Shown one piece after another: positions 15,341-64,000 of a DNA stretch of 64,000 nt (position 1 is its first letter; every line of letters begins with the position of its first letter). A program made the translations under genes and the position numbers. The stretch comes from Chloroflexota bacterium. GTDB lineage: Bacteria > Chloroflexota > Chloroflexia > Chloroflexales > Herpetosiphonaceae. The notes under the pieces are model-generated. The model had not been told where the DNA came from. It did no database searches and saw only the letters and a program-made list of their open reading frames with translations. The stretch spans positions 299,024 to 363,023 of the forward strand of contig JAIUOC010000003.1 of NCBI GenBank assembly GCA_020161265.1. Direction: 5' to 3'.

Positions 15341-15416
15341 TCCCTGATAGCTCAGTTGGTAGAGCAATTGACTGTTAATCAATGGGTCCTAGGTTCGAGT
15401 CCTAGTCAGGGAGCCA
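15341..15416 (+). tRNA. tRNA-Asn (anticodon GTT)
   Basis: Cloverleaf read by hand: acceptor tccctga/tcaggga, D-arm gctcagttggtagagc, anticodon loop cuGUUaa, T-arm ggttcgagtcc, encoded CCA. Confidence 0.85.
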
Positions 15417-15436: not shown

Positions 15437-15512
15437 TCCCTGATAGCTCAGTTGGTAGAGCGGTTGACTGTTAATCAGCATGTCCTAGGTTCGAGTCCTA
15501 GTCAGGGAGCCA
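15437..15512 (+). tRNA. tRNA-Asn (anticodon GTT), second tandem copy
   Basis: Near-identical to the first copy, differing only in the anticodon stem and variable loop. Encoded CCA. Confidence 0.85.
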
Positions 15513-35800: not shown

Positions 35801-38393
35801 TGCTGCCACGAACTCCACTCCTGAAAAGATCCCAAGTATAGCTATTTGGCCCAAGATTTGGTTCACCAAGCGTTCCGCTTAATGGAATTGCAGCAGTCCA
35901 GTGACCACCACCCATGCGTGAGAAGGCTAGATCAACCTGACGAGCTGGGGCATACCGCAGGCTATAGCTAATTGGTAGTTGGGGATCACTCAAAATCGTC
36001 GGGTTGGCGATCCCATCTGCGGCTAACCCACCAGGATGTTCAAGCAAGGGTTGTGGAATAACGCCTTGATGCAGGAGGTTGAAGCGTTGGTTTTGATAGA
36101 TCGCTGTGGTAATTGTATCAGCGGGATTTGTACCTTGGTTTTCGCCGCTTGCACTGAGATAAGCGATCGCTAGATCGTGATCACCATCAGCATCGGCATC
36201 GCCGCAAGCCCCGGCAAAAGCTCGCCCAGCGGTTGGGGTTGACCATAAAGCTGAGCGACTCAGGCTGCCAGCTTCGTTAAGGTACAGCCGACTGGGAGTA
36301 CCTTCGTTAAAGGCCAACAGATCAAGATCGCCGTCACCTTCGATATCACATGCTTCAAGTCCATTCGATGGGTCGTTTTCGCGTGATGACCAGATCGGTC
36401 GTACATCCAATGTTTCGCCTTGGTTGAGAAACACGCGATTTGGTTGATTATAGTTAGCAACCAAGAGATCTTGTAGACCATCGCTATTAATATCGGCCCA
36501 AGCAATATCCCGAGTCCGATCACGGTAGGTTATATTGTTCCAAAGCAGATTAAATTGATAGTGTGGGGTTAGTGCTAAGGGGTCACGTAATCCATCGTTA
36601 CGATAAACTTGGGTTGGCTGACCATCATTTGCAACCGCCAGATCGATATCGCCATCACCATCAACATCGCCCCAAGCTAGATTGCGAGTTGCCTGTACAA
36701 CTGGAGCGACCCATGCATCATACATTGTTACACTAAAGGGTTGCGTTTGACCAATTGGTGGTGGTTCAGTCGCCCGATTGCCAAGAATATAAATTGGGGC
36801 TTGATTTCGCCCGACAGCCATGTCAAGATCGCCATCATTATCAACGTCGCCAATCGCTAGCGAGGCATAGTCGGTGCCAAGCCGGACATCTTGCCAACCT
36901 GGCCGTCCATTAGGGCCAAAATTTCCATCGCCATGATTAAGAAACATGGCTAAACCTGTGCGACTTGCAGTCACCAGATCAAGCTTTCCATCCATATTCA
37001 TGTCGGCCCAAGCAATATCAAAGAGATTGTCTTGGCCAGACGATTGCCAGATGGGCGTAGTTGAGAGAGAGCCGCCGATATTCTGATAAACTTGTACTCC
37101 TTGATAACTTGCAATAGCAAGATCGAGCAAGTTATCAGCATCGAAATCGCCCCACGCCATTCCACGCACCGATATACCTACTGGAAGCGCCCATTGCGGC
37201 GCTGCAAATGGCGCTTGTCCATTGAGATACAGTCGGTTTGGATCTTCGTTATTTGAACGGATGATATCCAGATCACCATCATTATCAATATCGCCAGCCG
37301 CTAAACCATAGGATATATCCCGCTCGTTTGAAGTCCAGTCGGGAGTTTCTGGGTAAGTTCCAGCTTGTGCAAGATAGATCTGCATCGGGCCATGCGGTTG
37401 TTGTGGCGTATTACCACTCACGCTAATAACATCTAAATCATAGTCACCATCAATATCTTCTACGATTAAGTCTTGAGTTTTATCAGGGTTCGTTGACGAC
37501 CAAGTTGGGGTTAGGGCCAACGTTCCACTGATATTGTCAAAAAAGCGATTACCATGGCTTTCGCTGGCAATAAACAGCTCGGGATAGGTATCGTGATCAA
37601 TATTCCGCCATACGACACTGGTAGAGGCTTCAATTTGGGGTGCTTGCCAGACTGGATTCGCCGTAAGCAGGCCATTTAGGTTGTGATAGACTTGAGTTTT
37701 AGCGTTGCCACTATAGTTGGCAAAAGCTGCATCGAGATCATGATCGCCATCAACATCATCAAGTGCCACATAGACTGCTGGCAAGGCTATGTCCGAATTC
37801 CAGACAGGACTTGCACCCAAGGTTCCATCGCCTTGGTTGTAATACATGACTGCTTTGTTTTTATAGCAGGCAACCACAACATCTAAGTTGCCGTCGCCAT
37901 TCATATCGCCAAGTGCTAAGCTCCAACCGTGGTGAAGTAGTGGGGAGCGCCAACTTGGATGGTTTGGAAAGTGGCCCTGTTGATTGAGGTAGATTAGAAT
38001 CGGCCCATCGAAGGTGACTACAACGAGATCAAGCCAATTGTCACGATTCATATCGCCAAGGGCAATATCGCGCACCCGGTCGTTATCATCGACATCAACG
38101 TACCAACTTGGCAGTGGTTCTAGGCTCCCTCGTTGATTGCGATACATTCGAATACCGCCAGCATCGTCGCCGAAGAAAACATCGAGCCATCCATCATTAT
38201 CGCTATCACCCCAGGCGGTTGAGGTTGTTTCATAACGATCATTTGCTAGCCAAATTGGCTCAAGCGTTACTGTTTGGGGGGATGCTGGCGCAGCCAAGAG
38301 TTGCTGATTGGTGTGGGTATGTGGCAGGAAACTAAGGGTTAGCAGCAATAATGCGATGATTCGAAATCGGTGTAACGTACTCAAAAGAAACAT
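32820..38393 (-). CDS. Giant (1857 aa) secreted FG-GAP/VCBS beta-propeller repeat protein with an HExxH metallopeptidase-like motif
   Basis: Signal peptide. More than 15 'GD.D.DG..D' FG-GAP Ca-binding repeats. 'ILAHELSHYLFFMED'. The GGGYYRG x4 tandem repeat. Confidence 0.8.
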   Translation of the reverse strand: MFLLSTLHRFRIIALLLLTLSFLPHTHTNQQLLAAPASPQTVTLEPIWLANDRYETTSTAWGDSDNDGWLDVFFGDDAGGIRMYRNQRGSLEPLPSWYVDVDDNDRVRDIALGDMNRDNWLDLVVVTFDGPILIYLNQQGHFPNHPSWRSPLLHHGWSLALGDMNGDGNLDVVVACYKNKAVMYYNQGDGTLGASPVWNSDIALPAVYVALDDVDGDHDLDAAFANYSGNAKTQVYHNLNGLLTANPVWQAPQIEASTSVVWRNIDHDTYPELFIASESHGNRFFDNISGTLALTPTWSSTNPDKTQDLIVEDIDGDYDLDVISVSGNTPQQPHGPMQIYLAQAGTYPETPDWTSNERDISYGLAAGDIDNDGDLDIIRSNNEDPNRLYLNGQAPFAAPQWALPVGISVRGMAWGDFDADNLLDLAIASYQGVQVYQNIGGSLSTTPIWQSSGQDNLFDIAWADMNMDGKLDLVTASRTGLAMFLNHGDGNFGPNGRPGWQDVRLGTDYASLAIGDVDNDGDLDMAVGRNQAPIYILGNRATEPPPIGQTQPFSVTMYDAWVAPVVQATRNLAWGDVDGDGDIDLAVANDGQPTQVYRNDGLRDPLALTPHYQFNLLWNNITYRDRTRDIAWADINSDGLQDLLVANYNQPNRVFLNQGETLDVRPIWSSRENDPSNGLEACDIEGDGDLDLLAFNEGTPSRLYLNEAGSLSRSALWSTPTAGRAFAGACGDADADGDHDLAIAYLSASGENQGTNPADTITTAIYQNQRFNLLHQGVIPQPLLEHPGGLAADGIANPTILSDPQLPISYSLRYAPARQVDLAFSRMGGGHWTAAIPLSGTLGEPNLGPNSYTWDLFRSGVRGSNDTMAVQLRMYPSVLPQAHSTAGSYRYGAYTTNSFPFRVRGTGVRVLHATAEQPPIAAAGAIVYRLGAGQSGGGRPMAASQGSAPFITDGQGYLQGQSELRPDDRLIALVPITTTYAYSLYHTNGVPTEMGLDGWTITTPGTQELIARPEHPLLLFNLKIALEWDASHSPTYLQKLESDLHRASRYLYDFTNGQVALGKISVYQNGEQLNYADVVIHATNRLRPFASEGGIVLTKTLDLEHPEVIYDIGQVHIGSHWNRNGIPGEDISTDWSVILAHELSHYLFFMEDTYLGIQADQLLVPVDTCAGSAMGDVYLPTNTEFVFDPEVWQAHCQETLAAQELKRTEWETLRLWYPALITPTMPLAGPQQMPFVFTNVQIVDPLTPTTPLVDPTLYLEYAGNTTSSAKARGFLITNQQTPALTDDTIMPLGSTVNNQNRILGRGAQPGDRFCLFDRGTQHFGCEVLSIDDQYITLKHDAAWKPLVTLSPVTSTTLKLQVTGIQPGLSLQARLFPDDGSAGSPVLLEHFGDGYRGSLVSQYPSMSGHIQVWVEEPASETNPRRETLIAYSIGGNPGYYRGGGGYYRGGGGYYRGGGGYYRLGGAPLLSPDGQMTFYTKATFEVGQFYAIQEMAELPALPAGVVNVGQGYQLVTAQQTQPISGSVSFQYLGYDLITANVEEPDLAIGFWNGTYWERLSTVLNTTYNVAAAHAPKPGIYTLIGGHSQPSVQSLTPTMITSGLTNTLLVSGNNLLAPATLHLQTLTSTISLSVTLHNSSSGSITLTAALAPGYYRTSLTNGDGSSVPAPALALYPPTPACFAETFNSQLGKWQIQGTWATSRLASGEVALDDSPGHAYAQAVAPNQYLTSTLTFHEPINLANCQHPVLSFEHDYVFARTAAGDDHGSVEVSTDNGLTWQIIADFTGGGAHGLRPATPSSDEWSTPHWKPVRISLRSFQNQTIRLRLRMTVDRDGSDRGWLLDNLMINQSQPIYLPLINR
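34000..34082. repeat. Perfect 21-bp tandem repeat (3 exact copies plus 1 degenerate) inside the FG-GAP gene, encoding (GGGYYRG)n
   Basis: accgccaccaccgcgatagta at 34020-34040, 34041-34061 and 34062-34082. Confidence 0.7.
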
Positions 38394-47368: not shown

Positions 47369-48844
47369 CTACTCGATACTAAAAACCATTTCAACATCAC
47401 CAATCCGAATCCGGTCACCAGGCCGCAGATGGTGCGGTTGATAGGCAGTCATTGGCACGCCATTGATGCTTGTGCCATTGATGCTGCCCAAATCAATTAA
47501 TAAATGATGATCACCCTGTTGTTCGATCACGGCATGGCGGCGCGAGGCCACACCCCGATCATGCTCAGCCAAATCGATCTCAGGATGATGATTTTGCGCC
47601 GGATCACGCCGCCCAATTCGGCAAGGAAAGTGGGTTAATGCCAATTCCCACACAGCGCGGGGCGAAGTAATCACTAGCTTGGGCACAGCCCGTTTGATTG
47701 CCGCGCCACAACCAGCGCAAAACCGCGCATTAGGTTTATTCATGCGGCCACATTGATCGCAAATTGGGCCATTAGCCTGGGGCGGCGGCGACCAAGCTGG
47801 GGTTTGGACGGGCGGTGCCCACGATGGGGCTGGCTGTGGCACAGGTTGCGGCATTGGCTGTTGATATTGTGGCGGACTGGGATTGCCCCAAGCTGGCGCA
47901 GGGTTTGGGTTCGGATTACCCCAGGCTGGCGCAGGGTTTGGATTGGGATTATTGAAAACTGGTGCTGGCATCGACATCATGGTTGGATCATCGCGCTTAT
48001 CGGGCACAATCACCCCACGATCAACCGCCAACAATGCTTGCTCAAACGAAGCCATGGTCTGAAAGCGCTTCTCGCGATCCATTGCCATCGACCGAATAAT
48101 CACCTGCTCCATCTCTGGGGTAACCGATTGATTATGTTTGATCAGCGAGCCATCTTTGGGAGTTTGCAGCGGCACAGGTGGCAGGTTAGTCAACATATGC
48201 AGCAAGGTTGCGCCCAAGGCATAAATATCAGCCCGCGCATCAGTTTGGCCCTTGCCATATTGCTCAGGTGGCGCATAGCCAGCCGACCCCATAGCCACGG
48301 TATCTTTACTTTTATTGGTTTTGTAGGTTCGCGCCACGCCAAAATCGATCAGCTTAATAATGCCTTCAGGCGTGAGCATCACATTCGGCGGCTTCATATC
48401 ACGAAAAATAATTGGGGGATTTTGGCTATGCAAATAATTAAGCACACGAGCAATCTGCACGCCCCAATTCAGCACATCACGTTGAAAAAATGGCGCGTTC
48501 ATTTCACGCTGCTTATCTTCAAGCGTTTTGCCTTGGACAAACTCCATCACCAGCGTGGGGCGACCAGCCTGCTCAAATGAATCGACCACTTTGGGCAAGT
48601 TGGGATGATCGAGCGTTTGCAATAATTGCGCTTCTTGGTCAAAGAGCTTGCGATTTTCGGCAATTTCCTCGGGAGCGGCCTCGGCTGGTGGGCGCATCTC
48701 TTTAACCGCCCAGGTTGAGCCATCGCTGAGGCGCTCGCCACGATAGACCGCGCCCATGCCCCCGCGCCCGATGATGCCGAGAATCCGATATTGATCGTGT
48801 TGTCCTTGAAGGATCGTGCCATCAGGCAGCAAATCAGCAAACAC
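47369..48844 (-). CDS. Ser/Thr protein kinase with a Pro-rich repeat linker, a zinc ribbon and a C-terminal FHA domain
   Basis: Kinase motifs 'AVKEM', 'FRDMKPPNV' and 'DFG'. '(NPNPNPAPAWG)x2'. 'CDQCGR...CAGCG'. FHA-like C-terminus '...RRHAVIE...GSINGTSINGV'. Confidence 0.8.
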   Translation of the reverse strand: MFADLLPDGTILQGQHDQYRILGIIGRGGMGAVYRGERLSDGSTWAVKEMRPPAEAAPEEIAENRKLFDQEAQLLQTLDHPNLPKVVDSFEQAGRPTLVMEFVQGKTLEDKQREMNAPFFQRDVLNWGVQIARVLNYLHSQNPPIIFRDMKPPNVMLTPEGIIKLIDFGVARTYKTNKSKDTVAMGSAGYAPPEQYGKGQTDARADIYALGATLLHMLTNLPPVPLQTPKDGSLIKHNQSVTPEMEQVIIRSMAMDREKRFQTMASFEQALLAVDRGVIVPDKRDDPTMMSMPAPVFNNPNPNPAPAWGNPNPNPAPAWGNPSPPQYQQPMPQPVPQPAPSWAPPVQTPAWSPPPQANGPICDQCGRMNKPNARFCAGCGAAIKRAVPKLVITSPRAVWELALTHFPCRIGRRDPAQNHHPEIDLAEHDRGVASRRHAVIEQQGDHHLLIDLGSINGTSINGVPMTAYQPHHLRPGDRIRIGDVEMVFSIE

Positions 48845-49107
48845 AGTTTCCCCCGCCGCTACATGATTGCGTAGCCTGTATTATCAACGATTGATACGCC
48901 AAAAGTCAAAGGGTTGTGGCAACTATTAATCAACAATTAAGCAAAAAAACTCAACTTAGCTGCAAAAAAATCACGCCAAATTGCATCTATACCTAGTACA
49001 GGCTGTGCTTGACAATCCTTGGTAGGATAGGACGTATCTCCTAGCGTTCCACCAAGCCACACCAATATACCACTCTCTGTTGCCAATTAGTTCTCTGGGG
49101 AGTTGTA

Positions 49108-50949
49108 ATGTCGCATTTATTACTAATCACGATTGGTCCAGTTCAAGATTTCATCGCCAGTGCTCGCCGAACCCGCGACCTCTGGTTTGGTTCGTGGCTG
49201 CTCAGCGAGTTGTCCAAAGCGGCGGCACAAAGCATTTATCAAGCTAAAGGTAATTTGATCTTTCCTTATCCAACCGATTCTGACCAAGATTTAGAGGCAA
49301 ATAGTGCTTTCAATGTACCCAACAAAATTCTGGCCGAGGTAGAGGGCGATGTCAAAACGATTGCTGACGCAGCCAAAAATGGCTTGGATACCCGCTTGAA
49401 CGAAATTCGTAACGGGGCATTTGCAAAAGTAACTGGTGCGTTTGATCAAGCCCGAGCCAATGACCAAATCAATGCTTTGATGGAATTCAATTGGGTTGCC
49501 CTGCCCTTAGGGACTGATTATGCGAAAACTCGCGAGCAGCTTGAACACCTGATGGCAGCTCGCAAAAATACTCGTAATTTTAGCGAGGTGACGTGGGGCA
49601 CTCGTGCTCCAAAATCCTCAATCGATGGCGAACGTGAATCGGTGATTGATGAAAAATACTATCCCCCTGCTGGGATGGCGAATACCTCGCCAGAATACGC
49701 CAAAATCGTGACTAGGCTCTATCGTGATTATGGAATCAACGTTGGTGAACGTTTATCAGGCGTTGATATTCTTAAACGTCATGGTCAAAAAGGTGCCGAT
49801 TCAAGATTTCCAAGCACCTCGCATATGGCTGCTATACCTGTTTTTAATTATTTGCTTGGAATGAATACCAAAGAGCAAAGTAAAAATAAGGTAGCCCAAT
49901 CGTGGGATACATACATTGCTAATTTAAATACTATTCCTGCGGCACAAGAATATATTCGCAATGAAGTTACTCCCAAATCACAGGATATTTTTAAAGATTA
50001 TGATGGTTCGCTCCTCTTTGCTGAACGTTTTAATGATGCTTTGGTAGGGGATGATCTGAAGAATGCTCAAAAATATCTGCATGATTTCTTAAAACCATTT
50101 CTTGATACTACAACTCCGATTCCCTACTATGCCATTCTGCATGCTGATGGTGATGCGATGGGGAAATTTATTAATGCGACCCATAGAATGGATGAACATC
50201 AAGACATTTCTGAAAAATTAACTAGATTTGCGGGAAATGTTAAGTTGATCGTGGAGAAACATCAAGGAGCCTTAGTCTATTCGGGCGGCGATGACGTTTT
50301 AGCATTTTTACCACTAACAAGTAGCTTTGAAATTCAAGAAAGTGACAATAAACGTTTCGCAACAGTTTTTGATTGTGCTGCTGAATTAGCTGATGAGTTC
50401 AAACAAAAACTTGCTAATTCAATGGTATCACTCTCGGTTGGCATTGCGATTGTGCATCACCTCGAGCCATTATCCGATGCCTTAGATTTAGCGCGTAAGG
50501 CTGAGCAGAAAGCCAAAGCTGTAACAGGTAAAAATGCGCTGGCAATCAACCTCAGCAAACGCGGCGGCGCAGATCGAATTATCGCCGGATCGTGGGCTAA
50601 ACCTGAGGGTCAGTTTTCGTTATATGAACGACTGACGCACCTAATCGAGTTACATCAAGCCGAGCAAATTCCCCTCGGCTTTGCCTTTGAACTGCACGAT
50701 TTATCTATTCGCCTAAAAGACTTGCCCGCCAACATTTTTCACGCCGAAGCCAAACGAATCATCGAGCGCAAGCATACAAGCAACGGTAAAAAAGTTAAGG
50801 ATACTATTGCAGGGCAATTACTCAAAATGATTGATGATTTGTTATTAGATCAAAATACCAAGCCTCATTCTGGTATTCAACAATTTGCTGATGAAGTCAT
50901 TATTGCCGAATTTATTGCTAAAGCACAGAAGCTCGCCAATGGAAATTAA
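49108..50949 (+). CDS. cmr2: Type III-B Cas10/Cmr2, short form lacking the HD domain and the Cys4 zinc finger. The GGDD cyclase motif is intact.
   Basis: N-terminal 'ITIGPVQDFIASARRTRDLWFGSWLLSEL', palm-1 'ILHADGDAMGKF', palm-2 'LVYSGGDDVLAFLPL'. The protein has a single Cys. 613 aa. Confidence 0.75.
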   Translation: MSHLLLITIGPVQDFIASARRTRDLWFGSWLLSELSKAAAQSIYQAKGNLIFPYPTDSDQDLEANSAFNVPNKILAEVEGDVKTIADAAKNGLDTRLNEIRNGAFAKVTGAFDQARANDQINALMEFNWVALPLGTDYAKTREQLEHLMAARKNTRNFSEVTWGTRAPKSSIDGERESVIDEKYYPPAGMANTSPEYAKIVTRLYRDYGINVGERLSGVDILKRHGQKGADSRFPSTSHMAAIPVFNYLLGMNTKEQSKNKVAQSWDTYIANLNTIPAAQEYIRNEVTPKSQDIFKDYDGSLLFAERFNDALVGDDLKNAQKYLHDFLKPFLDTTTPIPYYAILHADGDAMGKFINATHRMDEHQDISEKLTRFAGNVKLIVEKHQGALVYSGGDDVLAFLPLTSSFEIQESDNKRFATVFDCAAELADEFKQKLANSMVSLSVGIAIVHHLEPLSDALDLARKAEQKAKAVTGKNALAINLSKRGGADRIIAGSWAKPEGQFSLYERLTHLIELHQAEQIPLGFAFELHDLSIRLKDLPANIFHAEAKRIIERKHTSNGKKVKDTIAGQLLKMIDDLLLDQNTKPHSGIQQFADEVIIAEFIAKAQKLANGN

Positions 50950-50974
50950 TCCAACAAGTTTTTGGAGGATTGCT

Positions 50975-52450
50975 ATGACTACACGCCGAGAACGTTCTAA
51001 GCAAAAGCAACAAGCCAAAAGGCAAAACAGCAGCAATATCCAATTGGTTGAGCAAACATTGCTAACACCAACCATTGATCAAATAGCTGAACCAACAATT
51101 GAGTCGGATAATTCAATTCAAGTTGAGGCAAACTCAGATCAACCAACCAACGCTGAAACTACAACTCAGCAAGCGTGGCTGATCGAGCCGCGTGACCCGT
51201 TGATTGTGCGCGATGGCCGACCGTTTAACAATACACTAGGAGCACGCGCCTATACCCAGTCGTTTCCACCACCATCAGTTTTGGCTGGGGTTATTCGATC
51301 CCAAACCGCCTATGCAACAAATATGCGGCTTACCCTTGATAATGGTAAACCTAATCAACCTAAGCTTGATCTGCTTAAACAAATAAAAATTTATGGACCA
51401 TTGCTATTCAAATTGCCCAATCCAAACAAAGAAAAAAATGAGCCTGAATTCCTATGTGCTGCACCTGCCGATGCACTGTTATTTGAGCCTGAGGCCAAAA
51501 CCGAGGCCCAAGAATCCGACAATCAACAATCACCCGCAACTCGACCTTGGCTCTGCCGCTTGATGCCAATTCAGGTTCCTGAAGGGTTCGTCTGCGATTT
51601 TAATGAACTTGGCTTGGTTGGTTTAGTCAAAGCTGATCCACGTAAGCCAGCCAAAGAGCAACCGCAATTTTGGTATTGGAAGCATTTTCTGCAATGGTTG
51701 CAAGATCCTGAAGGATTGATCAATAAGACCAATCCTCAAGCCTCAAACCCCAAGACAATCGCCATGGGAGATTTGGGAATTAAAGGCTTACCAATTGATC
51801 AACGAACGCATGTACAGATTGATAGTGAGAGCCAAAGTGCTGAAGATGGCCGCTTATTTCAAACCCGTGGCCTAAGTTTTACCCAAACCAACGAGCAACA
51901 ATTAGCAGAAGCGCGGCGTTTGGCATTATATGTGCACGCCGATTACCGCGATATAACTGGTTTAAGCATTCCACAGCCAAGCATTGCCCCCTTGGGCGGC
52001 GAACGCCGTTTGGCTCATTGGGCAACAACCAATCATAACTTACCAGCATGCGATCAAGCTATTCTCGACGCAATCGTAGAAGCCAACGCCTGTCGCGTAA
52101 TTCTGCTCACCCCAGCGATGTTTGAACATGGCTATCGCCCAACTTGGCTTTGTCGCGAGGTTGATGGGGTGCAGCCAACACTTGCAGCAATCGCGATCAA
52201 GCGTGCTCAAGTTATTTCAGGCTGGGATTTAGCAGCACGTGGCGCTAAACCAACTCGCCGCCTAGCTCCTGCTGGCACAGTCTTTTTCCTCTCGCTAGTA
52301 GGCGAAAAACCTGCAATTGAAGCTTGGGTTCGCAACTATTGGATGCGTTGTATTAGCGATGCCGACCAAGATCGCCGCGATGGCTTTGGGTTAGCAGTGC
52401 TCGGAGTTTGGGATGGGACGTTCGCTGAAATTAAGGGGGTAACCAAATGA
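50975..52450 (+). CDS. cmr3: Type III-B Cmr3 (Cas5 family)
   Basis: 'WLIEPRDPLIVRDGRPF...SFPPPSVLAGVIRS' is a typical Cmr3 N-terminus. GGAGG RBS. Confidence 0.7.
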   Translation: MTTRRERSKQKQQAKRQNSSNIQLVEQTLLTPTIDQIAEPTIESDNSIQVEANSDQPTNAETTTQQAWLIEPRDPLIVRDGRPFNNTLGARAYTQSFPPPSVLAGVIRSQTAYATNMRLTLDNGKPNQPKLDLLKQIKIYGPLLFKLPNPNKEKNEPEFLCAAPADALLFEPEAKTEAQESDNQQSPATRPWLCRLMPIQVPEGFVCDFNELGLVGLVKADPRKPAKEQPQFWYWKHFLQWLQDPEGLINKTNPQASNPKTIAMGDLGIKGLPIDQRTHVQIDSESQSAEDGRLFQTRGLSFTQTNEQQLAEARRLALYVHADYRDITGLSIPQPSIAPLGGERRLAHWATTNHNLPACDQAILDAIVEANACRVILLTPAMFEHGYRPTWLCREVDGVQPTLAAIAIKRAQVISGWDLAARGAKPTRRLAPAGTVFFLSLVGEKPAIEAWVRNYWMRCISDADQDRRDGFGLAVLGVWDGTFAEIKGVTK

Positions 52451-53877
52451 ATCGTAAACCAACTATTGATGCACCGGATCTGGAAAATTATCAATTACCC
52501 AATCAATTTACTGTTGGCGAACATACCTATATCACCGAAACCCGCAGCTACAAGCTGATCACCCCATTATTTGGTGGCGGCATCGAGGCTGGAGTGAATG
52601 ACCCAATCACGCCTATTCGTGCTAGTGGCATTCGCGGCCAATTGCGCTTTTGGTGGCGAGCTATTCGCGGCGGCGGCTATAGCTCAATTGATGATTTACG
52701 GGCAAAAGAGGCTGAGATTTGGGGTAGTGCTAATACAAATAGTGATTCGAAGAAAAATCGACAACTTTTTAGATCGGTGCAAATTAACGTTACTGAGGTT
52801 ATTCATACTCAAAATGAAAAAAAGAAGTATGAAATTACTCCATACGAAGTCATAAAAAAAGATGGTAAGTACTCAGTCACTATAACTCGAAACAATCCTA
52901 TTCCTAGATATGCAGTATTCCCACTACAACCAACTACTGAGGAAGCACAAGAGATAAAAGATAACAAACAAGATAAGCGCATTAAAAAACTTACCCATAA
53001 TATCCATTTTGATTTAGAGATTACATATCACGAAAGTTTTGAACTTGAAATTCAATCTGCATTATGGGCATGGGAGACATTTGGTGGAGTTGGTGGTCGT
53101 ACCCGACGTGGATTTGGTTCGATCAAAAGACTTGATAATCTTACATATCCTAAAACTATAAAGGATTTCAGACAATGGCTTATTAAAAATTTTGAAAATT
53201 ACAGTGTACTAACATATCTGCATGAAAAATTGCCTCAACTAAATATTAATAACCCTATTCGATTTATGATCTTTTATAAAACAAAAAAACAAGGTTTATT
53301 TGGAATGTGGAGGGATTTGATAGAACAATTGAAATATTTTCGGCAAGCAAAAAATACTGATGGAACAAGTCTTTGGCCTGAACCAAATCAGATTCGTAGA
53401 ATTACAAAACAATATCTTAAGCATCATAATCCAGATAATGTTCAAGCAAATCCGCAGTATAAGATAATCAAGGCATTCCCTCGTGCCCAGTTTGGATTAC
53501 CAATCATTTTTCAGTTTAAAGGTAATAGATATGGATCTAATAGGAAAGATTTAGATCCTCGTCCTACAACTCTTGGATTAGTAAATCCCAATGATTCAAC
53601 AAAAGATAATGAGCGTTTAGCCAGCCCACTTATCTTAAAAACCTTCCAATGTACAAATGGAGATAGCATAGGGTTAGCATTTATTTTATCAGGAAGTGAA
53701 CTAGCGCCAAAAATGGAGCTAGCACTGAAGGCTAGTGGCCATCCTATATCTCCAAAATCAGAAGATCTTAGGTTTTTGTTGGAAGAAGATGAAAAAATTG
53801 ATATAGGTATTAGTGAGGTAAAAGGCAATATCCTTGAATCATTTTTAGCTTATCTTGATAAAAAAATGCCGAAATAA
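52447..53877 (+). CDS. cmr1: Type III-B Cmr1 (Cas7 family), long form
   Basis: 'TPLFGGG...PIRASGIRGQLRFWWRA' and a G-rich loop 'FGGVGGRTRRGFGS'. The central part is AT-rich and Lys/Asn-rich. Confidence 0.7.
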   Translation: MNRKPTIDAPDLENYQLPNQFTVGEHTYITETRSYKLITPLFGGGIEAGVNDPITPIRASGIRGQLRFWWRAIRGGGYSSIDDLRAKEAEIWGSANTNSDSKKNRQLFRSVQINVTEVIHTQNEKKKYEITPYEVIKKDGKYSVTITRNNPIPRYAVFPLQPTTEEAQEIKDNKQDKRIKKLTHNIHFDLEITYHESFELEIQSALWAWETFGGVGGRTRRGFGSIKRLDNLTYPKTIKDFRQWLIKNFENYSVLTYLHEKLPQLNINNPIRFMIFYKTKKQGLFGMWRDLIEQLKYFRQAKNTDGTSLWPEPNQIRRITKQYLKHHNPDNVQANPQYKIIKAFPRAQFGLPIIFQFKGNRYGSNRKDLDPRPTTLGLVNPNDSTKDNERLASPLILKTFQCTNGDSIGLAFILSGSELAPKMELALKASGHPISPKSEDLRFLLEEDEKIDIGISEVKGNILESFLAYLDKKMPK

Positions 53878-53947
53878 TCTACTGTTACTAGGTAAAAAAT
53901 ACTGTTCTCAAAGCATTTTTAGCCTATCTTGCGAAGGAGCTACGATA

Positions 53948-54829
53948 ATGACCACCAAACTCGTTTTTGTGCATGCGCTTTCACCACTTCATGCTGGCAC
54001 TGGCCAAGGCGCTGGAGTTATTGATTTGCCGATTGCCCGTGAAAAAGCCACCAACTTGCCCTATTTGCCTGGTTCATCGCTCAAAGGCCCGTTGCGCGAT
54101 AGTTACGATGGTGCTCGTAAAGACGAAATCTTTGGAACTGCATCAGATAACGCTACTGGTAACGCTGGCTACGTTCAATTTTCTGATCTGCGCTTGTTGT
54201 GCATGCCGGTGCGCAGCTTGTATGGCACCTTCGCATGGGTTACCTCGCCCTACATTCTCAATCGCCTTGCCCGCGAAATCAAAAATCTTTTTACTGAAAA
54301 CACCCCACCGAGCTGGATCGAAAACCCTGATGTCGAGCAATGCCTTGTCGTTGCCGGATCAGCACTTAAATCAAACTTGCCAAAATCAGAAAAGCACAAG
54401 GATATTTATTTAGAAGATTTAGATTTTGAATATCAAGCAGATCAAGCTGAGCTAGTGACCCAATGGGCTGATTGGCTCAAAGAGCGTATTTTTGGCGATT
54501 TACCAGAGTGGCAACCCATGTTTGTCGAGCGTTTCTGCATCGTCAATGATGATGTATTTAGTTTCCTTCTGAATACAACGACCGAAATAACTGCTCGGAT
54601 TCGGCTCAACGATGAGACCAAAACAGTTGCCGATGGTCAACTTTGGTATGAAGAAGCCTTGCCTGCCGAATCGATTTTGACTGGCTTGATGTTGATTGCT
54701 CCGCCAGCCTCAAAAACAGACGTAGGAGACAGCATTAAGACTGAGCTACCACGCCTGTGGCAAAAACCAATTCAGCTTGGGGGCAAGGCCACCGTTGGGC
54801 GTGGCATTTGTCGCGTGATTGTGAAATAG
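53948..54829 (+). CDS. cmr4: Type III-B Cmr4 (Cas7 backbone subunit)
   Basis: 'LSPLHAGTGQGAGVIDLPIAREKATNLPYLPGSSLKGPLRD'. GAAGGAG RBS before ATG 53948. Confidence 0.8.
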   Translation: MTTKLVFVHALSPLHAGTGQGAGVIDLPIAREKATNLPYLPGSSLKGPLRDSYDGARKDEIFGTASDNATGNAGYVQFSDLRLLCMPVRSLYGTFAWVTSPYILNRLAREIKNLFTENTPPSWIENPDVEQCLVVAGSALKSNLPKSEKHKDIYLEDLDFEYQADQAELVTQWADWLKERIFGDLPEWQPMFVERFCIVNDDVFSFLLNTTTEITARIRLNDETKTVADGQLWYEEALPAESILTGLMLIAPPASKTDVGDSIKTELPRLWQKPIQLGGKATVGRGICRVIVK

Positions 54830-54839
54830 GAGCAGCACA

Positions 54840-55310
54840 ATGAGTAATTCAGTCTTTCAAACTCGTGATCAACAATATGCTGCTTCAGCGTATGCTCATA
54901 TTGAAGAAGTTCTAGAAAAATATCCAAAACCGGATATTAAGTCAGATGAAAAAAACACACTGGTGTACAAAAAAAACCGCAAACGCTACGGGGTCATAGC
55001 ACATAAATTGCCTATATTAATTAGAACTGCTGGCTTAACGCAAGCATTGGCATTTATTAGTTCACGGAGTAAGAAAAATAAAACTGGCAAAGAAGATGAA
55101 TTTAGTTTATTCCTAAGCCATCTTGCAAAAACAATAAACATAGATACAAATGATCTTGTTCAATATAGTATCCAACAACCCCTATCAAATTATATGTATC
55201 TAACCCAACAGGTGCTTGATGCACTTTTATGGTATAAGCGCTTTGCTCAAAGTGTACTTGATGTTGATCCAACTGATCAACTTGATGATGAGCAGGGAGC
55301 TGAAGCATGA
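54840..55310 (+). CDS. cmr5: Type III-B Cmr5 (Cas11 small subunit)
   Basis: 156-aa helical protein between cmr4 and cmr6, e.g. 'HKLPILIRTAGLTQALAF'. Confidence 0.65.
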   Translation: MSNSVFQTRDQQYAASAYAHIEEVLEKYPKPDIKSDEKNTLVYKKNRKRYGVIAHKLPILIRTAGLTQALAFISSRSKKNKTGKEDEFSLFLSHLAKTINIDTNDLVQYSIQQPLSNYMYLTQQVLDALLWYKRFAQSVLDVDPTDQLDDEQGAEA

Positions 55311-56155
55311 GAAGCAGTCGTTTAGAGGTTAAATATGAGCATATTTCAACAAAAGATAGGCCTAGTGATTGTAATGCAGGCTTATGGCTAGATCGTTATT
55401 TATCTGATCAATCAAACGATGATGGGAATTTCAAACCAAAGCATTTCGCCGATGTTACCAAAATTGCACATCACATGCATAACTCTAAACTCTATCGAGC
55501 ATTTTTTACCCGTTGGTTGAACACATTAAAGGGGATTCCTGAGATTTGTTTGTTGAAGGCGACCGTCGAGGGCCGTATGGTCGTGGGGCTGGGAGCCGAA
55601 AGTGTGCTCGAAAACGCTATTGCCTTGCAGCGCACCTACGGCTTGCCTTACATTCCAGGCAGTGGCTTGAAAGGCTTGGCATCGAGCTTCGCTCACCAAC
55701 GCCTTGGCCAAAGCCCAGCCAACGCTGATACCCTCAACGATTGGGCTAAGGGTGGAAAATTTCATCGCGAATTATTTGGCACAACCGAGCTAAGTGGCTG
55801 CGTTAGCTTTTACGATGCTTTGTATATTCCTAATACGGCTCAGGCTGGTGGTCCATTGCATTCGGATGTGATTACTGTGCATCATCCTACGTATTATCAA
55901 GGCAATTCAACCCCGCCAGCGGATTGGGATAGCCCAGATATTATTCCGTTTCTTAGCGCAACTGGTCACTATTTAGTAGCACTCAGCGGAGACCCGAATT
56001 GGTGTAATGCCGCCCGCACCCTGCTCGCTAATGGCCTGACGCATATGGGTATTGGCGCAAAAACATCAAGCGGCTATGGCCGGATGAAACTTGGGGAAAT
56101 GTGTAAGAACGAGCAACAAATCGAAGCCCTACTTCAACGTTTGAATAAAAAATAA
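55307..56155 (+). CDS. cmr6: Type III-B Cmr6 (Cas7 family)
   Basis: 'GLGAESVLENAIALQRTYGLPYIPGSGLKGLA'. Overlaps the cmr5 stop (ATGA). Confidence 0.75.
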   Translation: MRSSRLEVKYEHISTKDRPSDCNAGLWLDRYLSDQSNDDGNFKPKHFADVTKIAHHMHNSKLYRAFFTRWLNTLKGIPEICLLKATVEGRMVVGLGAESVLENAIALQRTYGLPYIPGSGLKGLASSFAHQRLGQSPANADTLNDWAKGGKFHRELFGTTELSGCVSFYDALYIPNTAQAGGPLHSDVITVHHPTYYQGNSTPPADWDSPDIIPFLSATGHYLVALSGDPNWCNAARTLLANGLTHMGIGAKTSSGYGRMKLGEMCKNEQQIEALLQRLNKK

Positions 56156-56221
56156 GAGCGCTTTTGATGATGAGTTAAAAAGGTTTTTCATTAATTTTTA
56201 TTTTCACTTAAGGAGTCATCG

Positions 56222-57076
56222 ATGAAAATTCTTTTATCGCTAGTTGGTGCCCAACCTTTGCCGAACCTTATTCCTATCTATCACCTTAAACCAGATTTAG
56301 CATTGCTTATTTATACTGGTGGAACAGTCAAACAAGCTAATAATACTGCGGCGCTTCTAAGATCCAAAAATATTGAAACTGAAATTATATGTACGGATTC
56401 TTATGATATCTCAAAGATTACCCGACAGATAGAGGAAGGTATTTCTAATTTCAGCGCAGGTAATGAGATTTACTTTAATGTTACTGGTGGAACAAAACCG
56501 ATGTCATTTGCCGCTGCCCAGGTGGCACGAAAATACAACTTTCCTGTGGTTTATCTTGAGAGCGAAGCAGGCAAAAGTAAGTTGTATACATATGCTTGGA
56601 AAGATTTTGAATTCCATCTCATAAAAGAAGATTCTATACCACCTTGTATAGCACTAGAGGATTGGCTAGATGTTCATTTAGGCTTAGAAAATTGGTCTAT
56701 CGAGAAAGTAAAAGAGCCTTTTGAAGAAGCAGTTATAGGTATTCTGGAAAAGAATAATATTGAAATATTATCAGCTGTACGTTCTTTCTCAGGACAGATA
56801 GATTTAGATGTAATTTATCGTAAGGGTAATCATTTTGGTATTATTGAAGTGAAATGCGGAGAAAAAGGTAAAAAAATTGAAGGTATAAGACAACTTAATA
56901 CAACGGGTTTACACTTAGGTATTTATTCAAATAAGATTCTAATTATTACAGAACAACCTGGGAAATCTCAATTAGCCCTTGCAGATGCATCAAATGTGCA
57001 AATTCTTTCAGTTAATTTTGATGGCTCTACTATTGATGAAGATTCTGAAGCAAAAATATTAAATATTATTAAGTGA
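56222..57076 (+). CDS. CARF-domain protein with a C-terminal PD-(D/E)xK nuclease-like domain (Can2/Card1-like cOA-activated effector candidate)
   Basis: N-terminal 'MKILLSLVGAQPLPNLIPI' CARF-type Rossmann start and C-terminal 'IDLDVIYRKGNHFGIIEVKCGEK' (D...EVK). AT-rich gene. Confidence 0.55.
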   Translation: MKILLSLVGAQPLPNLIPIYHLKPDLALLIYTGGTVKQANNTAALLRSKNIETEIICTDSYDISKITRQIEEGISNFSAGNEIYFNVTGGTKPMSFAAAQVARKYNFPVVYLESEAGKSKLYTYAWKDFEFHLIKEDSIPPCIALEDWLDVHLGLENWSIEKVKEPFEEAVIGILEKNNIEILSAVRSFSGQIDLDVIYRKGNHFGIIEVKCGEKGKKIEGIRQLNTTGLHLGIYSNKILIITEQPGKSQLALADASNVQILSVNFDGSTIDEDSEAKILNIIK

Positions 57077-57110
57077 TATTATTCGAGTAGAATTTAACGA
57101 AGGAAACCCT

Positions 57111-57500
57111 ATGCTTCTGATTAACTTTGCGCATCCATTGACTGATAAACAGTTTGCCCAAGTTGTAGCGCTGGTCGATGAAACGCCCGAAATTCGCTTT
57201 GTCGATACCCAAGTGAGCCGCATGCGGCCTTTGGCTGAGGTTGCTTACGATTTGATTGAAAGCATCGGCTTGAAAACCGCCGATTGGCAAACAATCCCAA
57301 TTATTATCAATCCGCCGGGGCTGGCTCCATTGGCCTTGGCGGTTATCGCTGAGTTGCATGGGCGCTCCGGCTATTTTATGCCAATCATCAATATGCGCCC
57401 TGTGCCCAATACCACCCCAACCGTTTTTGAGGTAGGCGAGATTTGCAATTTGGATGCAATTCGTCAAGTCGCCCGCACTCGGCGAATTCCTAAACTGTAG
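57111..57500 (+). CDS. Small (129 aa) uncharacterized protein co-oriented with the cmr module. Possible accessory protein (Csx3/ring-nuclease-like?), unverified.
   Basis: Position and orientation only. Alternating beta/alpha pattern 'WQTIPIIINPPGLAPLALAVIAELHG'. Confidence 0.35.
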   Translation: MLLINFAHPLTDKQFAQVVALVDETPEIRFVDTQVSRMRPLAEVAYDLIESIGLKTADWQTIPIIINPPGLAPLALAVIAELHGRSGYFMPIINMRPVPNTTPTVFEVGEICNLDAIRQVARTRRIPKL

Positions 57501-57548
57501 CAGCAACACAGGGCATCGATATGATTTGATCGGTGCCCTGCATTTAAT

Positions 57549-58307
57549 CTAGCTAAACCGCCCGACATACACGGTGGTTGTGTATAAAAAGGCCACTTTG
57601 CCTTCAACCTGATGCTGTTGCCAAGCCTCAATCAACCCTTGGCGGAGCAGTTGATAGGTAGGTTGCTCAGGTGTAGGCGTATACGACGAGGAAAAAGCTC
57701 GGCCTAACAAACCAGCTTGATCAAAATATTGGGCGTTTTGGGCGGTATAGCAAGCTGGTTGGTTGCCAAAGAAATCAGCAATGCGTTGTGGTTCGATGTT
57801 GGTATGCCTGACGCTGGCGTAATCGCTGCCAAATTGGTGTAATAGCGCTTCGTATTGCTGTAAAAACGCTGTGCCGTCAAGCGAACGTTGGTTCCAAATT
57901 AAGCCTACCCAACCCTCAGGTTGTAAAATTCGTTGCCATTCGCGGCGCGTCGCCTGTGGTTCGAACCAGTGAAACGCCTGAGCCGCCGTAATCCAATCGA
58001 CGCTCTGATCGTCCAATCCCGTGGCTTCGGCGCTACCATCAACGGCTTGGAATGTGGGATAACGCTCGGCAAGTTGCAGGCTGGCTTCGCGCATCGGTGC
58101 GTTGGGTTCAACCGCATAGACAGTTGCCCCATGCTGGAGTAGTTGCTCGCTCCAAATCCCTGTGCCCGCCCCAATATCGGCCACGACTGAGTTTTGGCCA
58201 AAGCCATGGTGTTGTTGCAAGGGCACGAATATTTCGCTAGGGTAATTTGGGCGAAACTGGACATAATCAGCTACCCGATTGCTGAAGCGCTGACGATTAT
58301 CGGTCAT
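57549..58307 (-). CDS. Class I SAM-dependent methyltransferase
   Basis: Motif I 'VADIGAGTGIWS' and 'VYAVEPN'. Confidence 0.75.
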   Translation of the reverse strand: MTDNRQRFSNRVADYVQFRPNYPSEIFVPLQQHHGFGQNSVVADIGAGTGIWSEQLLQHGATVYAVEPNAPMREASLQLAERYPTFQAVDGSAEATGLDDQSVDWITAAQAFHWFEPQATRREWQRILQPEGWVGLIWNQRSLDGTAFLQQYEALLHQFGSDYASVRHTNIEPQRIADFFGNQPACYTAQNAQYFDQAGLLGRAFSSSYTPTPEQPTYQLLRQGLIEAWQQHQVEGKVAFLYTTTVYVGRFS

Positions 58308-63338: not shown

Positions 63339-64000
63339 TTATTGAAAAACAGCTTTAATCAATTGTGGCAACAACTCATCAGCACTGCCCGCCAACGAAT
63401 AAGTTGCAATCCCTCGCAACGGAATATCAGGGTTAATTTCAATCACCGTTTTTTTGCGGCGCAAGGCTCGATGAGGCAACGAAGCAATTGGCTCAACAAT
63501 CGCCGATGTGCCAATTACCAAGGCCACGTCGCTGTTATCAAAGGCGTGCTTGGCCGCTTGCAATATGTCAGCATCCAACAATTCGCCAAACCAAACAATA
63601 TCAGGCCGTAATGGTGCGCCACAAGCCGGGCAAATTGGCTGCTCAGCATCCCAGGTTTCAACCAAATTGCCTTCTCGCGAACAGATTGTGCGAGCCAAAC
63701 TGCCATGCACCTCATAAACCTGGCCTGAGCCAGCCCGCTGATGCAAACTATCAATATTTTGGGTAAACAGCTTAAATTGCGTGATCAATTGCTCCAAATG
63801 CGCCAAGGCATAATGCCCAGCATTTGGTTGGGCTGCCTCACACTGGCGTTTCATGGCTTGATACACCTGAAAAACCCCAACTGGATCACGCTCAAAGCCC
63901 GCGAATGTCGCAACTTTATCAGGATCATAGGCCGTCCAACGGGCATCAGCGGCGGCACTACGATAGGTCGGAATTCCGCTGGGAGCTGAAATTCCCGATC
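63339..64000 (-). CDS. cobB: NAD-dependent protein deacylase (Sir2/CobB), 3' portion. The gene continues past the window end.
   Basis: 'FTQNIDSLHQRAG', 'VYEVHGS', 'CPACG' and 'RPDIVWFGE'. The upstream frame, still open at 64000, encodes 'SGIPTYRS'. Confidence 0.8.
   Translation of the reverse strand, partial: SGISAPSGIPTYRSAAADARWTAYDPDKVATFAGFERDPVGVFQVYQAMKRQCEAAQPNAGHYALAHLEQLITQFKLFTQNIDSLHQRAGSGQVYEVHGSLARTICSREGNLVETWDAEQPICPACGAPLRPDIVWFGELLDADILQAAKHAFDNSDVALVIGTSAIVEPIASLPHRALRRKKTVIEINPDIPLRGIATYSLAGSADELLPQLIKAVFQ

Follow-up and report, generated by a model that had tools for sequence, protein, structure and literature searches.

In the textbook architecture, Cas10 carries an HD domain at its N-terminus (bioRxiv 10.1101/2020.06.24.163345). 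The textbook protein also has a four-Cys zinc finger between its Palm domains, and both features are absent from a Cas10 candidate encoded by a Herpetosiphon-like member of the Chloroflexi. The locus raises the question of whether the protein is a genuine Cas10/Cmr2 and, if so, how it would act. The gene and its upstream surroundings are given below in coordinates of the window (the whole 64-kb stretch of DNA that was analyzed):

47369-48844, minus strand: Ser/Thr kinase-FHA gene, the next gene upstream of cas10 and divergent from it
48845..49107, no strand: 263-bp intergenic region between the divergent kinase-FHA and cas10 genes
49108..50949, plus strand: cas10/cmr2, 613 aa, HD-less and without zinc-finger Cys, cyclase motifs intact

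The cas10 ORF begins with an ATG and has a Shine-Dalgarno sequence (GGGGAG) about 7 nt 5' of it; in 48845..49107 the minus strand has a single sigma-70-like site, no more than expected by chance. Pfam placed Cmr2_N (PF12469) at residues 4-100 (1.3e-18) and Cas10-Cmr2_palm2 (PF22335) at residues 340-479 (1.8e-34), and the curated equivalog TIGR02577 was matched at 190.1 bits (cut-off 79.4) over model positions 1-509 of 510. The identical protein is named "type III-B CRISPR-associated protein Cas10/Cmr2" in NCBI, from a Chloroflexi MAG. Comparison with five Herpetosiphon orthologues gave dN/dS values of 0.23-0.31. Given the TIGR02577 and palm2 scores and these dN/dS values, cas10 is judged from its sequence to be a real gene rather than a chance ORF, and its product is assigned as an HD-less type III-B Cas10/Cmr2, encoded by the first gene of a complete Cmr operon. 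An AF2 model (pLDDT 88.7, pTM 0.87) was used for Foldseek searches. Cmr2 structures were the best full-length matches to the predicted fold (probability 1.00, TM up to 0.75); they included DtCmr2 (9arw_A; TM 0.73/0.75, E 1e-24) and the HD-deleted PfCmr2dHD (3ung; TM 0.65/0.72), on which the model superimposes over its full length.

Among Pfam and NCBIfam matches to the protein (E ≤ 0.01), there was no HD family. The short length could be an artefact, with the HD domain sitting in a different upstream frame because the gene is split or frameshifted, or lost from the annotation through a miscalled start; beyond the textbook N-terminal position of the domain, no support for this was found. Only 263 bp lie between cas10 and the divergent kinase gene, and this region holds no HD coding remnant and several stops in each of the three forward frames, the closest in-frame stop being 21 codons before the ATG. 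Small ORFs nearby had no Pfam match, even at E ≤ 1. The homologues share this start residue, and the in-frame extension available upstream of cas10 in 81 related loci is at most 97 codons (median 12). Residue 3 of the protein already falls on the first position of TIGR02577, a model that therefore contains no upstream HD segment. A sequencing error would have to hide more than 600 nt and is excluded, because five Herpetosiphon genomes show the same architecture. With the forward frames closed, no Pfam match in the small ORFs and at most 97 codons of upstream room in relatives, a split or frameshifted gene was rejected, and the artefact retains a negligible probability. The protein could also resemble Cas10 without being one, as a diguanylate cyclase of the GGDEF type or some other nucleotide cyclase. 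A few homologues have a precomputed PF00990 match, one of them is named "GGDEF domain-containing" in UniRef, and several PDB entries for Cmr2 are also deposited under a GGDEF name. The window protein, however, has no PF00990 match at E ≤ 0.01, its best matches are the palm2, Cmr2_N and above-cut-off TIGR02577 models, its best full-length structural matches are Cmr2 structures, and its gene heads a cmr3-1-4-5-6 operon. On family scores, fold and operon context, the diguanylate cyclase was rejected, leaving it only a vanishing chance. The sequence-only reading had described a 613-aa Cas10 without an HD domain that opens at its first palm segment and is not mis-annotated, and had proposed superposition on Cmr2dHD and a search for a split gene or a GGDEF cyclase as checks; the description stands after all three.

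The catalytic and zinc-finger regions of the protein contain four features of interest:

50284..50295, plus strand: GGDD cyclase motif of Palm2 (residues 393-396), with acidic partner residues D347 and D349 at 50146-50154
49615..49626, plus strand: degenerate first zinc knuckle, S170-S-I-D173 in PKSSIDGERES, aligned with C-S-I-C of DtCmr2
49756..49767, plus strand: degenerate second zinc knuckle, S217-G-V-D220 in GERLSGVDILKR, aligned with C-G-V-C of DtCmr2
50317..50358, plus strand: lineage-specific insertion of 14 aa (T404-F417) that follows the GGDD hairpin directly

The SGGDD sequence occupies residues 392-396. Residues D347, D349, G393, G394 and D396 are invariant in 151 of 151 family sequences, and D395 is present in 148, so the earlier description of the motif as intact was sound. 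Its observation of one Cys and no zinc finger was likewise reproduced: C423 is the sole Cys, no CxxC motif occurs in the window Cas10, and the four Cys of DtCmr2 (CSIC...CGVC) align with S170, D173, S217 and D220. Of the 151 family representatives, 149 have S170 and 138 have D173, and the second knuckle takes either an S..D form (94) or a C..G form (about 52). A careful alignment showed the C423 column to be a nearly invariant Cys (64/65). The 14-aa insertion was present in only three of the 65 aligned sequences (the window Cas10, P0002 and H. gulosus P0004) and is predicted to form a β-hairpin, with mean pLDDT values of 82-87 for the 10-residue blocks covering it in the AF2 model. The column that follows it holds His in 62/65 sequences and Ala418 in the window Cas10. 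No description of the clade-wide SxxD...SxxD replacement of the zinc ligands, or of the insertion, was found in the literature examined, and the PDB entries searched included no atomic structure of the TtCmr2-like clade, the closest of them being 23% identical with its Cys retained. A tentative and rather doubtful proposal is that the Ser/Asp set conserved in this clade marks a structurally undescribed form of the Cas10 zinc-finger module that does without zinc and is possibly stabilized by hydrogen bonds or a different metal, and that the insertion and the His-to-Ala change near GGDD could alter the output of the cyclase, in the size of its cyclic oligoadenylate (cOA) product or in its regulation.

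Membership in Cas10/Cmr2 is unaffected by the missing domains. An HD domain is recognizable in only 39% of all Cas10 proteins (PMC11229360) and more than half of III-B Cas10 proteins are without one (bioRxiv 10.1101/2023.09.03.556089), so its absence does not exclude membership; HD-less Cas10 proteins of about 600 aa are a recognized and abundant class (PMC8682760, PMC11229360). The zinc-finger Cys are not clade-defining either, since neither T. thermophilus Cmr2 (TtCmr2) nor the 150 best representatives have the ligands. Among 50%-identity representatives, the window Cas10 had 7039 matches with E ≤ 1e-3, of which 1601 reached E ≤ 1e-30. The median length of the best 150 is 621 aa, and none of them has at least two CxxC motifs or an N-terminal extension of more than 60 aa. 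The window protein shares with the TtCmr2-like short clade end-to-end homology, a length within about 570-690 aa, and the KSSxDGxRES and LSGVDxLKR sequences that replace the knuckles; the cmr2-3-1-4-5-6 order is kept in every sufficiently long locus among the 81 related ones.

TtCmr2 from strains HB8/HB27 (TTHB160) is 36-40% identical to the window Cas10 over the full length (584 versus 613 aa). It is also HD-less, has exactly one Cys and no CxxC, and retains GGDD and the DGD motif; its knuckles read KSSLDGARES and LAGPDLLKR, giving the common pattern KSS-x-DG-x-RES and L-[S/A]-G-x-D-x-LKR, and its operon has the same cmr2-3-1-4-5-6 order. The TtCmr complex lacks an HD domain, makes cOA upon target binding, has no DNase activity and protects in vivo (PMC8376896; bioRxiv 10.1101/2023.09.03.556089). 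In contrast to TtCmr2, which comes from a thermophilic member of the Deinococcota, the protein of the Herpetosiphon-like host carries the 14 inserted residues after GGDD and has Ala where the clade conserves His. The window also has a CARF effector and Csx15 directly downstream, whereas the sole annotated CARF-family gene in a 19.7-kb stretch surrounding the HB8 operon is csm6, about 8 kb upstream. The closest solved structure is that of DtCmr2 (612 aa, III-B), which is similarly HD-less and about 600 aa long and whose sequence match spans both halves of the window Cas10 (E 4e-35), but which is only about 23% identical and keeps the CSIC...CGVC Cys in place of S..D/S..D. Because DtCmr2 is HD-less yet retains these Cys, loss of the HD domain and loss of the zinc ligands are separate events. 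(PMC13060164, on S. marcescens, was considered as the source of 9arw and 9z7x and set aside; it describes a III-A Csm complex.) Compared with Pyrococcus furiosus Cmr2/Cmr2dHD (3ung, 3w2v, 4w8y), the predicted model is a natural counterpart of the engineered construct that lacks HD. Palm2 of PfCmr2 aligns well with that of the window Cas10, GGDDVLA included, at about 22% identity, but native PfCmr2 begins with an HD domain of about 200 aa, with the Palm2 match displaced by about 195 residues along the 888-residue chain of 4w8y. HD-less Cas10 proteins acting via cOA signaling are an established, abundant and experimentally characterized class (TtCmr and VmeCmr of Vibrio metoecus), of which the window protein is an ordinary member. 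The rarity implied by the sequence-only reading was mistaken, since the ~600-aa HD-less class is abundant and T. thermophilus Cmr2 has all three of the features it had singled out, the single Cys among them.

The remainder of the operon follows cas10 on the same strand:

50975..52450, plus strand: cmr3 (Cas5 family), Pfam Cas_Cmr3 2.2e-71
52447..53877, plus strand: cmr1 (RAMP), TIGR01894 2.4e-19, PADLOC Cmr1 4.6e-35
53948..54829, plus strand: cmr4 (Cas7 backbone RNase), 293 aa from ATG 53948, TIGR02580 2.9e-74
54840..55310, plus strand: cmr5 (Cas11 small subunit), Pfam Cas_Cmr5 2.8e-23
55307..56155, plus strand: cmr6 (RAMP), TIGR01898 8.7e-37
56222..57076, plus strand: compact Can2/Card1-like CARF and PD-(D/E)xK nuclease, 284 aa, putative cA4-activated effector
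57111..57500, plus strand: csx15, 129 aa, small CARF-superfamily protein, putative cA4 sponge or ring nuclease

The true start of cmr3 is likely ATG 50975 rather than TTG 50885; the resulting N-terminus, MTTRRERSKQKQQ, matches the start of the H. gulosus gene, and GGAGG lies upstream. Catalytic D26 of Cmr4 is kept, with GVID placed on GVVD(26) of PfCmr4 by alignment. The nuclease matches PADLOC CARF4--CARF_PDDEXK over its full length (1.6e-110), Pfam CARF_Card1 (5.5e-13) and, in the PDB, Can2 (7bdv, 6e-7) and Card1 (6wxw, 1.7e-4). Its DLDVIY (194-199) and IIEVK (207-211) align with ELDVIY and VIECK of Card1, so that it shares both the CARF_Card1 domain and the D..E-x-K motif with these enzymes, at 284 aa compared with 366-382 aa for the solved Can2/Card1 chains. 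The PADLOC profile is PDLC01887 (285 positions), a separate compact subfamily that is already catalogued. The Csx15 assignment is based on PADLOC (1.3e-38), PDB csx15 (9teu, 6.5e-14) and the Csx15 domain of CbCash (9ylu, 8.5e-16); proteins of this family act as a cA4 sponge or ring nuclease (PMC13148439). Values of dN/dS across the eight operon genes were 0.03-0.55, indicating purifying selection. In H. gulosus the locus is syntenic and occupies the same chromosomal site, and four other Herpetosiphon genomes also have this operon; in two orthologous Herpetosiphon operons, Csx1 (CARF-HEPN) takes the slot of the Can2-like gene and Csx15 is kept. The upstream kinase (PADLOC PD-T4-6, mad6) and a downstream methyltransferase (mad2) were considered as linked defense genes and rejected, as the matches are generic and the NCBIfam scores fall far below cut-offs.

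The reading preferred here, with a probability of roughly 80%, is that the protein is the large subunit of a complete type III-B Cmr effector in the HD-less, zinc-ligand-less TtCmr2-like clade, which would convert crRNA-guided RNA sensing into cA4 and so activate a nuclease. Cmr1-6 would assemble on crRNA from a CRISPR array at another site in the genome. A complementary foreign transcript, once bound, would switch on the Palm/GGDD cyclase of Cas10, and the resulting cOA, most likely cA4, would bind the CARF domain of the adjacent Can2/Card1-like nuclease, leading to degradation of nucleic acid. Csx15 would sequester or degrade cA4, Cmr4 would cleave the bound target RNA through D26 and thereby turn the cyclase off, and Cas10 itself would have no DNase activity. 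The inference of target-RNA-dependent cOA synthesis draws on conserved motifs, the linked CARF proteins and published TtCmr activity (PMC8376896), and the choice of cA4 as the most likely messenger follows the effector families. A CARF nuclease and Csx15 directly downstream are what a signaling-dependent system needs. The mechanistic elements of the sequence-only reading are all supported, with the HD domain absent and the cyclase residues kept, but its "signaling-only" label disregards the Cmr4 RNase; with D26 conserved, the complex should still cut target RNA, and "signaling-only" is slightly overstated.

Two further possibilities concern the messenger and the state of the operon. Cas10 could be active with cA3, cA6 or SAM-AMP in place of cA4: the products of Cas10 enzymes vary in vitro, the HD-less III-B VmeCmr, paired with NucC, makes cA3 (PMC8682760), SAM-AMP is attributed to some HD-less III-B systems in work cited in PMC11229360, and the insertion beside GGDD could shift product size. 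Compared with VmeCmr by description only, the window has CARF-type effectors (Can2-like, Csx15), which point to cA4; characterized members of the Can1-2/Card1, Csx15 and Csx1 families are cA4-specific (PMC11229360, PMC13148439, PMC12409355). No NucC-, CorA- or NrN-type gene was present beside the operon among the genes scanned (those at about 41.6-63.9 kb and ten large ORFs at 0.9-40.9 kb of the window), and a different messenger is considered unlikely. Less likely still is an orphan operon that is silent or in decay, a horizontally acquired, array-less remnant that has lost its role in immunity. No CRISPR array was detected in the 64-kb window with TRF, a repeat finder and a k-mer chain detector, there was no family match to cas6 or cas1/cas2 among the window ORFs scanned, GC content is 34-46% in the operon versus 50-55% in its flanks, and the insertion and the lost His adjoin the active site; the missing array and these two changes also weigh against the preferred reading. 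Against decay, all eight ORFs are intact and under the purifying selection noted above, Cas10, Cmr4 and the nuclease retain their catalytic residues, and the locus persists at its site in H. gulosus and its operon in four more Herpetosiphon genomes. Nor is a missing array unusual: only 23 of the 81 related loci have one within 10 kb, III-B loci are mostly without their own (PMC12669027, legend of Extended Data Fig. 2), and array-less III-B loci use arrays in trans (PMC12669027; bioRxiv 10.1101/2023.09.03.556089).

For the family, an intact HD-less Cas10 of this kind has little importance beyond correct annotation. What mild interest there is lies in structure, in the folding of the zinc-finger region without its ligands and in the role of the 14-aa insertion beside GGDD. 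For the organism, the locus reads as a tidy, natural and self-contained cA4 module, in which a cyclase complex is joined by a compact Can2-like nuclease and a putative Csx15 off-switch, and as a compact mesophilic system it could be of use in diagnostics or biochemistry.

The cas10/cmr2 reading frame is real. Script counts on its 613-residue product gave exactly one cysteine (C423), placed an intact SGGDD at residues 392–396 and found no CxxC motif. The surrounding type III-B operon is arranged as follows, in window positions.

47369–48844, minus strand: Ser/Thr kinase gene with zinc-ribbon and FHA domains, flanking the operon, next upstream of cas10
48845–49107: divergent intergenic region of 263 bp between the kinase-FHA gene (minus) and cas10 (plus)
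49108–50949, plus strand: cas10/cmr2, ATG start, 613 aa
49615–49626 and 49756–49767, plus strand: former zinc-ligand sites within cas10, SxxD...SxxD
Likely true start ATG 50975, plus strand: cmr3, downstream of cas10
Plus strand: cmr1, downstream of cmr3
Likely true start ATG 53948, plus strand: cmr4, downstream of cmr1
Plus strand: cmr5, downstream of cmr4
Plus strand: cmr6, downstream of cmr5
Plus strand: 284-aa CARF protein, downstream of cmr6, PADLOC CARF4--CARF_PDDEXK
Plus strand: 129-aa Csx15, downstream of the CARF gene, PADLOC Csx15
57549–58307, minus strand: class I methyltransferase gene, flanking the operon

The gap ahead of cas10 is a divergent intergenic region because the kinase gene lies on the opposite strand. 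Stops interrupt all three of its forward frames, the closest in-frame stop lying 21 codons 5' of the cas10 ATG; a GGGGAG Shine-Dalgarno sequence lies ~7 nt 5' of that ATG, and Pfam searches of small ORFs near cas10 returned nothing at a threshold as loose as E ≤ 1. An HD domain needs ~200 aa. On these grounds the upstream region offers neither space for an HD domain nor a remnant of one, as the sequence-only reading had held.

Pfam searches of the protein placed Cmr2_N at residues 4–100 (1.3e-18) and Cas10-Cmr2_palm2 at residues 340–479 (1.8e-34) and returned no match to GGDEF (PF00990). The curated NCBIfam equivalog TIGR02577 (Cas10/Cmr2) scored 190.1 bits (cut-off 79.4); its match begins at model position 1, corresponding to residue 3, so this is a model without an upstream HD segment. 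An AlphaFold2 model built from 65 homologues was confident (pLDDT 88.7, pTM 0.87), and its top PDB structure matches were Cmr2 chains throughout. These included DtCmr2, a solved HD-less III-B Cas10 (9arw_A; TM 0.73/0.75), and, in the Cmr2dHD comparison that had been proposed from the sequence, P. furiosus Cmr2 with HD removed (3ung; TMq 0.65, TMt 0.72). With full-length PfCmr2 and with A. fulgidus Cmr2, the match was confined to the non-HD part (TMt 0.44–0.50). The modeled fold suggests that the window Cas10 is in effect a natural "Cmr2dHD".

In textbook Cas10 proteins, a zinc finger joins the Palm domains (PMC3150331; bioRxiv 10.1101/2020.06.24.163345). The expected absence of a four-cysteine finger was borne out by alignment, in which CSIC of DtCmr2 corresponds to S170..D173 of the window protein and CGVC to S217..D220; spacing and position suggest that the DtCmr2 cysteines are zinc ligands. 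Among 151 sequences, S170 is kept in 149 and D173 in 138, position 217 is Ser in 94 and Cys in 55, and position 220 is Asp in 94 and Gly in 52. The former ligand sites of the 151 representatives and T. thermophilus Cmr2 (TtCmr2) are thus conserved as SxxD...SxxD, or as SxxD...CxxG in a subgroup, and the motifs around them, KSSxDGxRES and ERLSGVDLLKR, vary hardly at all. Because both replacement residues and flanking motifs are conserved, the cysteine ligands have been lost and the sequence element retained in a conserved cysteine-free form. No discussion of such a replacement was found in the literature searched, and the PDB yielded no solved structure from the clade. Since HD-less DtCmr2 retains its cysteines, HD loss and zinc-ligand loss are independent events.

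The cyclase residues D347, D349, G393, G394, and D396 are invariant (151/151 sequences). Directly after the GGDD hairpin, a 14-aa insertion (TSSFEIQESDNKRF; T404–F417, window 50317–50358) is present in only 3/65 aligned sequences, namely the window protein and the two sequences nearest to it, P0002 and P0004 from H. gulosus. At the next position (codon 418) these three have Ala, vs His in 62/65. AlphaFold2 modeled the insertion as an extra β-hairpin, with mean pLDDT 82–87 in the blocks holding it.

The closest characterized relative is Cmr2 of T. thermophilus HB8/HB27 (pTT27, 584 aa), which aligned end to end at 36–40% identity in a tblastn search against plasmids. It shares the operon order, a single cysteine, the absence of CxxC, and an intact GGDD with the window protein, and its former zinc-knuckle sites read KSSLDGARES and LAGPDLLKR. 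The TtCmr complex is well studied and provides plasmid interference in vivo (bioRxiv 10.1101/2023.09.03.556089). A search of 1.84 billion representatives at 50% identity returned 7039 hits with E ≤ 1e-3, of which 1601 reached E ≤ 1e-30. Among the top 150 (E < 1e-92), the median length is 621 aa, and no sequence carries two CxxC motifs or >60 residues ahead of the Cmr2_N start. At 81 genomic loci from Chloroflexota, Acidobacteriota, Bacillota, Abditibacteriota, Myxococcota, and others, the possible in-frame upstream extension reached at most 97 codons (median 12), and every locus long enough to show gene order had cmr2-3-1-4-5-6. An array lay within 10 kb in 23/81, Csx15 was present in 29/81, and a Can2-like gene in 17/81.

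The 284-aa CARF protein matched CARF4--CARF_PDDEXK over its full length (1.6e-110), as well as Pfam CARF_Card1 and solved Can2 and Card1, and its DLDVIY...IIEVK aligns with the PD-(D/E)xK region of Card1. Csx15 matched its PADLOC profile (1.3e-38), PDB csx15 9teu (6.5e-14), and the Csx15 domain of CbCash 9ylu (8.5e-16); members of the Csx15 family bind cA4, serving either as sponges or as slow ring nucleases (PMC13148439). A 146-aa ORF antisense to csx15 (57069–57509, minus strand) is probably a shadow ORF: its sole match is a sub-threshold Pfam hit, and in H. gulosus it is csx15 on the plus strand that is annotated. Repeat scans found no CRISPR array across the 64-kb window, and no cas6 or cas1/2 family matched the window ORFs scanned; III-B loci lacking arrays or adaptation genes are usual (PMC12669027, legend of Extended Data Fig. 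2). The flanking genes match PADLOC defense profiles (kinase, PD-T4-6 and mad6; methyltransferase, mad2), but their NCBIfam scores are far under cut-offs, so they look more like generic domain matches than a linked defense system.

The messenger is most likely cA4, because characterized members of the Can1-2/Card1, Csx1, and Csx15 families respond to it (PMC11229360, PMC12409355, PMC13148439). In the best-supported scheme of five steps, a transcript would be bound under crRNA guidance, Cas10 would make cA4, the CARF nuclease would be activated, Csx15 would damp the signal, and target cleavage by Cmr4 would switch the system off. The proposal of a signaling-only effector holds for Cas10 and fails for the whole complex, in which the catalytic Asp of Cmr4 (D26, P. 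furiosus numbering) is kept.

Herpetosiphon Cas10 orthologues are 65–82% identical to the window protein, and an identical sequence is already in NCBI, annotated there as a type III-B Cas10/Cmr2. GC content of the cmr-can2-csx15 block (~49000–57500) is 34–46% vs 50–55% in both flanks, which fits a horizontally acquired island; yet in H. gulosus, too, the block is bordered by this kinase gene on one side and this methyltransferase gene on the other. In pairwise comparisons with orthologues from five Herpetosiphon genomes, dN/dS was 0.23–0.31 for cas10 and <0.6 for all eight operon genes. Divergence from the five orthologous loci (L001–L005) is mosaic along 49108–57500: dS against H. aurantiacus (L003) is 0.05–0.09 for cmr5 and the Can2-like gene vs 1.07 for cmr1, and identity to H. 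gulosus is 98% for csx15 and 57% for cmr5. This mosaic suggests recombination or module exchange inside the operon. In H. geysericola and Herpetosiphon sp. NSE202, a Csx1 (CARF-HEPN) gene replaces the Can2-like gene between cmr6 and csx15 (L002 17131–18471; L005 16885–18192; PADLOC about 1e-88 to 1e-93); the effector cassette is swapped and Csx15 kept.

Elsewhere in the window, two tandem tRNA-Asn (GTT) genes (15341–15416 and 15437–15512, plus strand) sit in an 81-nt repeat with copies 93% identical. Three very large ORFs lie at 20153–29701 (minus), 32820–38393 (minus), and 30014–32785 (plus). Their products are a protein of 3182 aa in which SdrD_B, CARDB, PKD, and cohesin domains were recognized, an FG-GAP repeat protein of 1857 aa, and a 923-aa NB-ARC/NACHT-TPR (STAND-type) ATPase. 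A 175-aa ORF (63339–63866, minus) matched the Sir2 family over the C-terminal part alone (profile positions 51–180) and may have a miscalled start or be truncated.

Published work describes a Cas10 class of ~600 aa in which HD is absent, cyclase residues are retained, and interference proceeds through signaling alone (PMC8682760); HD is recognizable in only 39% of 1113 Cas10 proteins (PMC11229360) and missing from most of those of type III-B (bioRxiv 10.1101/2023.09.03.556089). The sequence-only observation is accurate, and the mechanism read from it is in essence what the field accepts. What had seemed surprising in this protein is normal within a large Cas10 clade that is annotated and has been characterized biochemically. 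The HD-less, zinc-ligand-less Cas10 of the window is thus of a kind already known.
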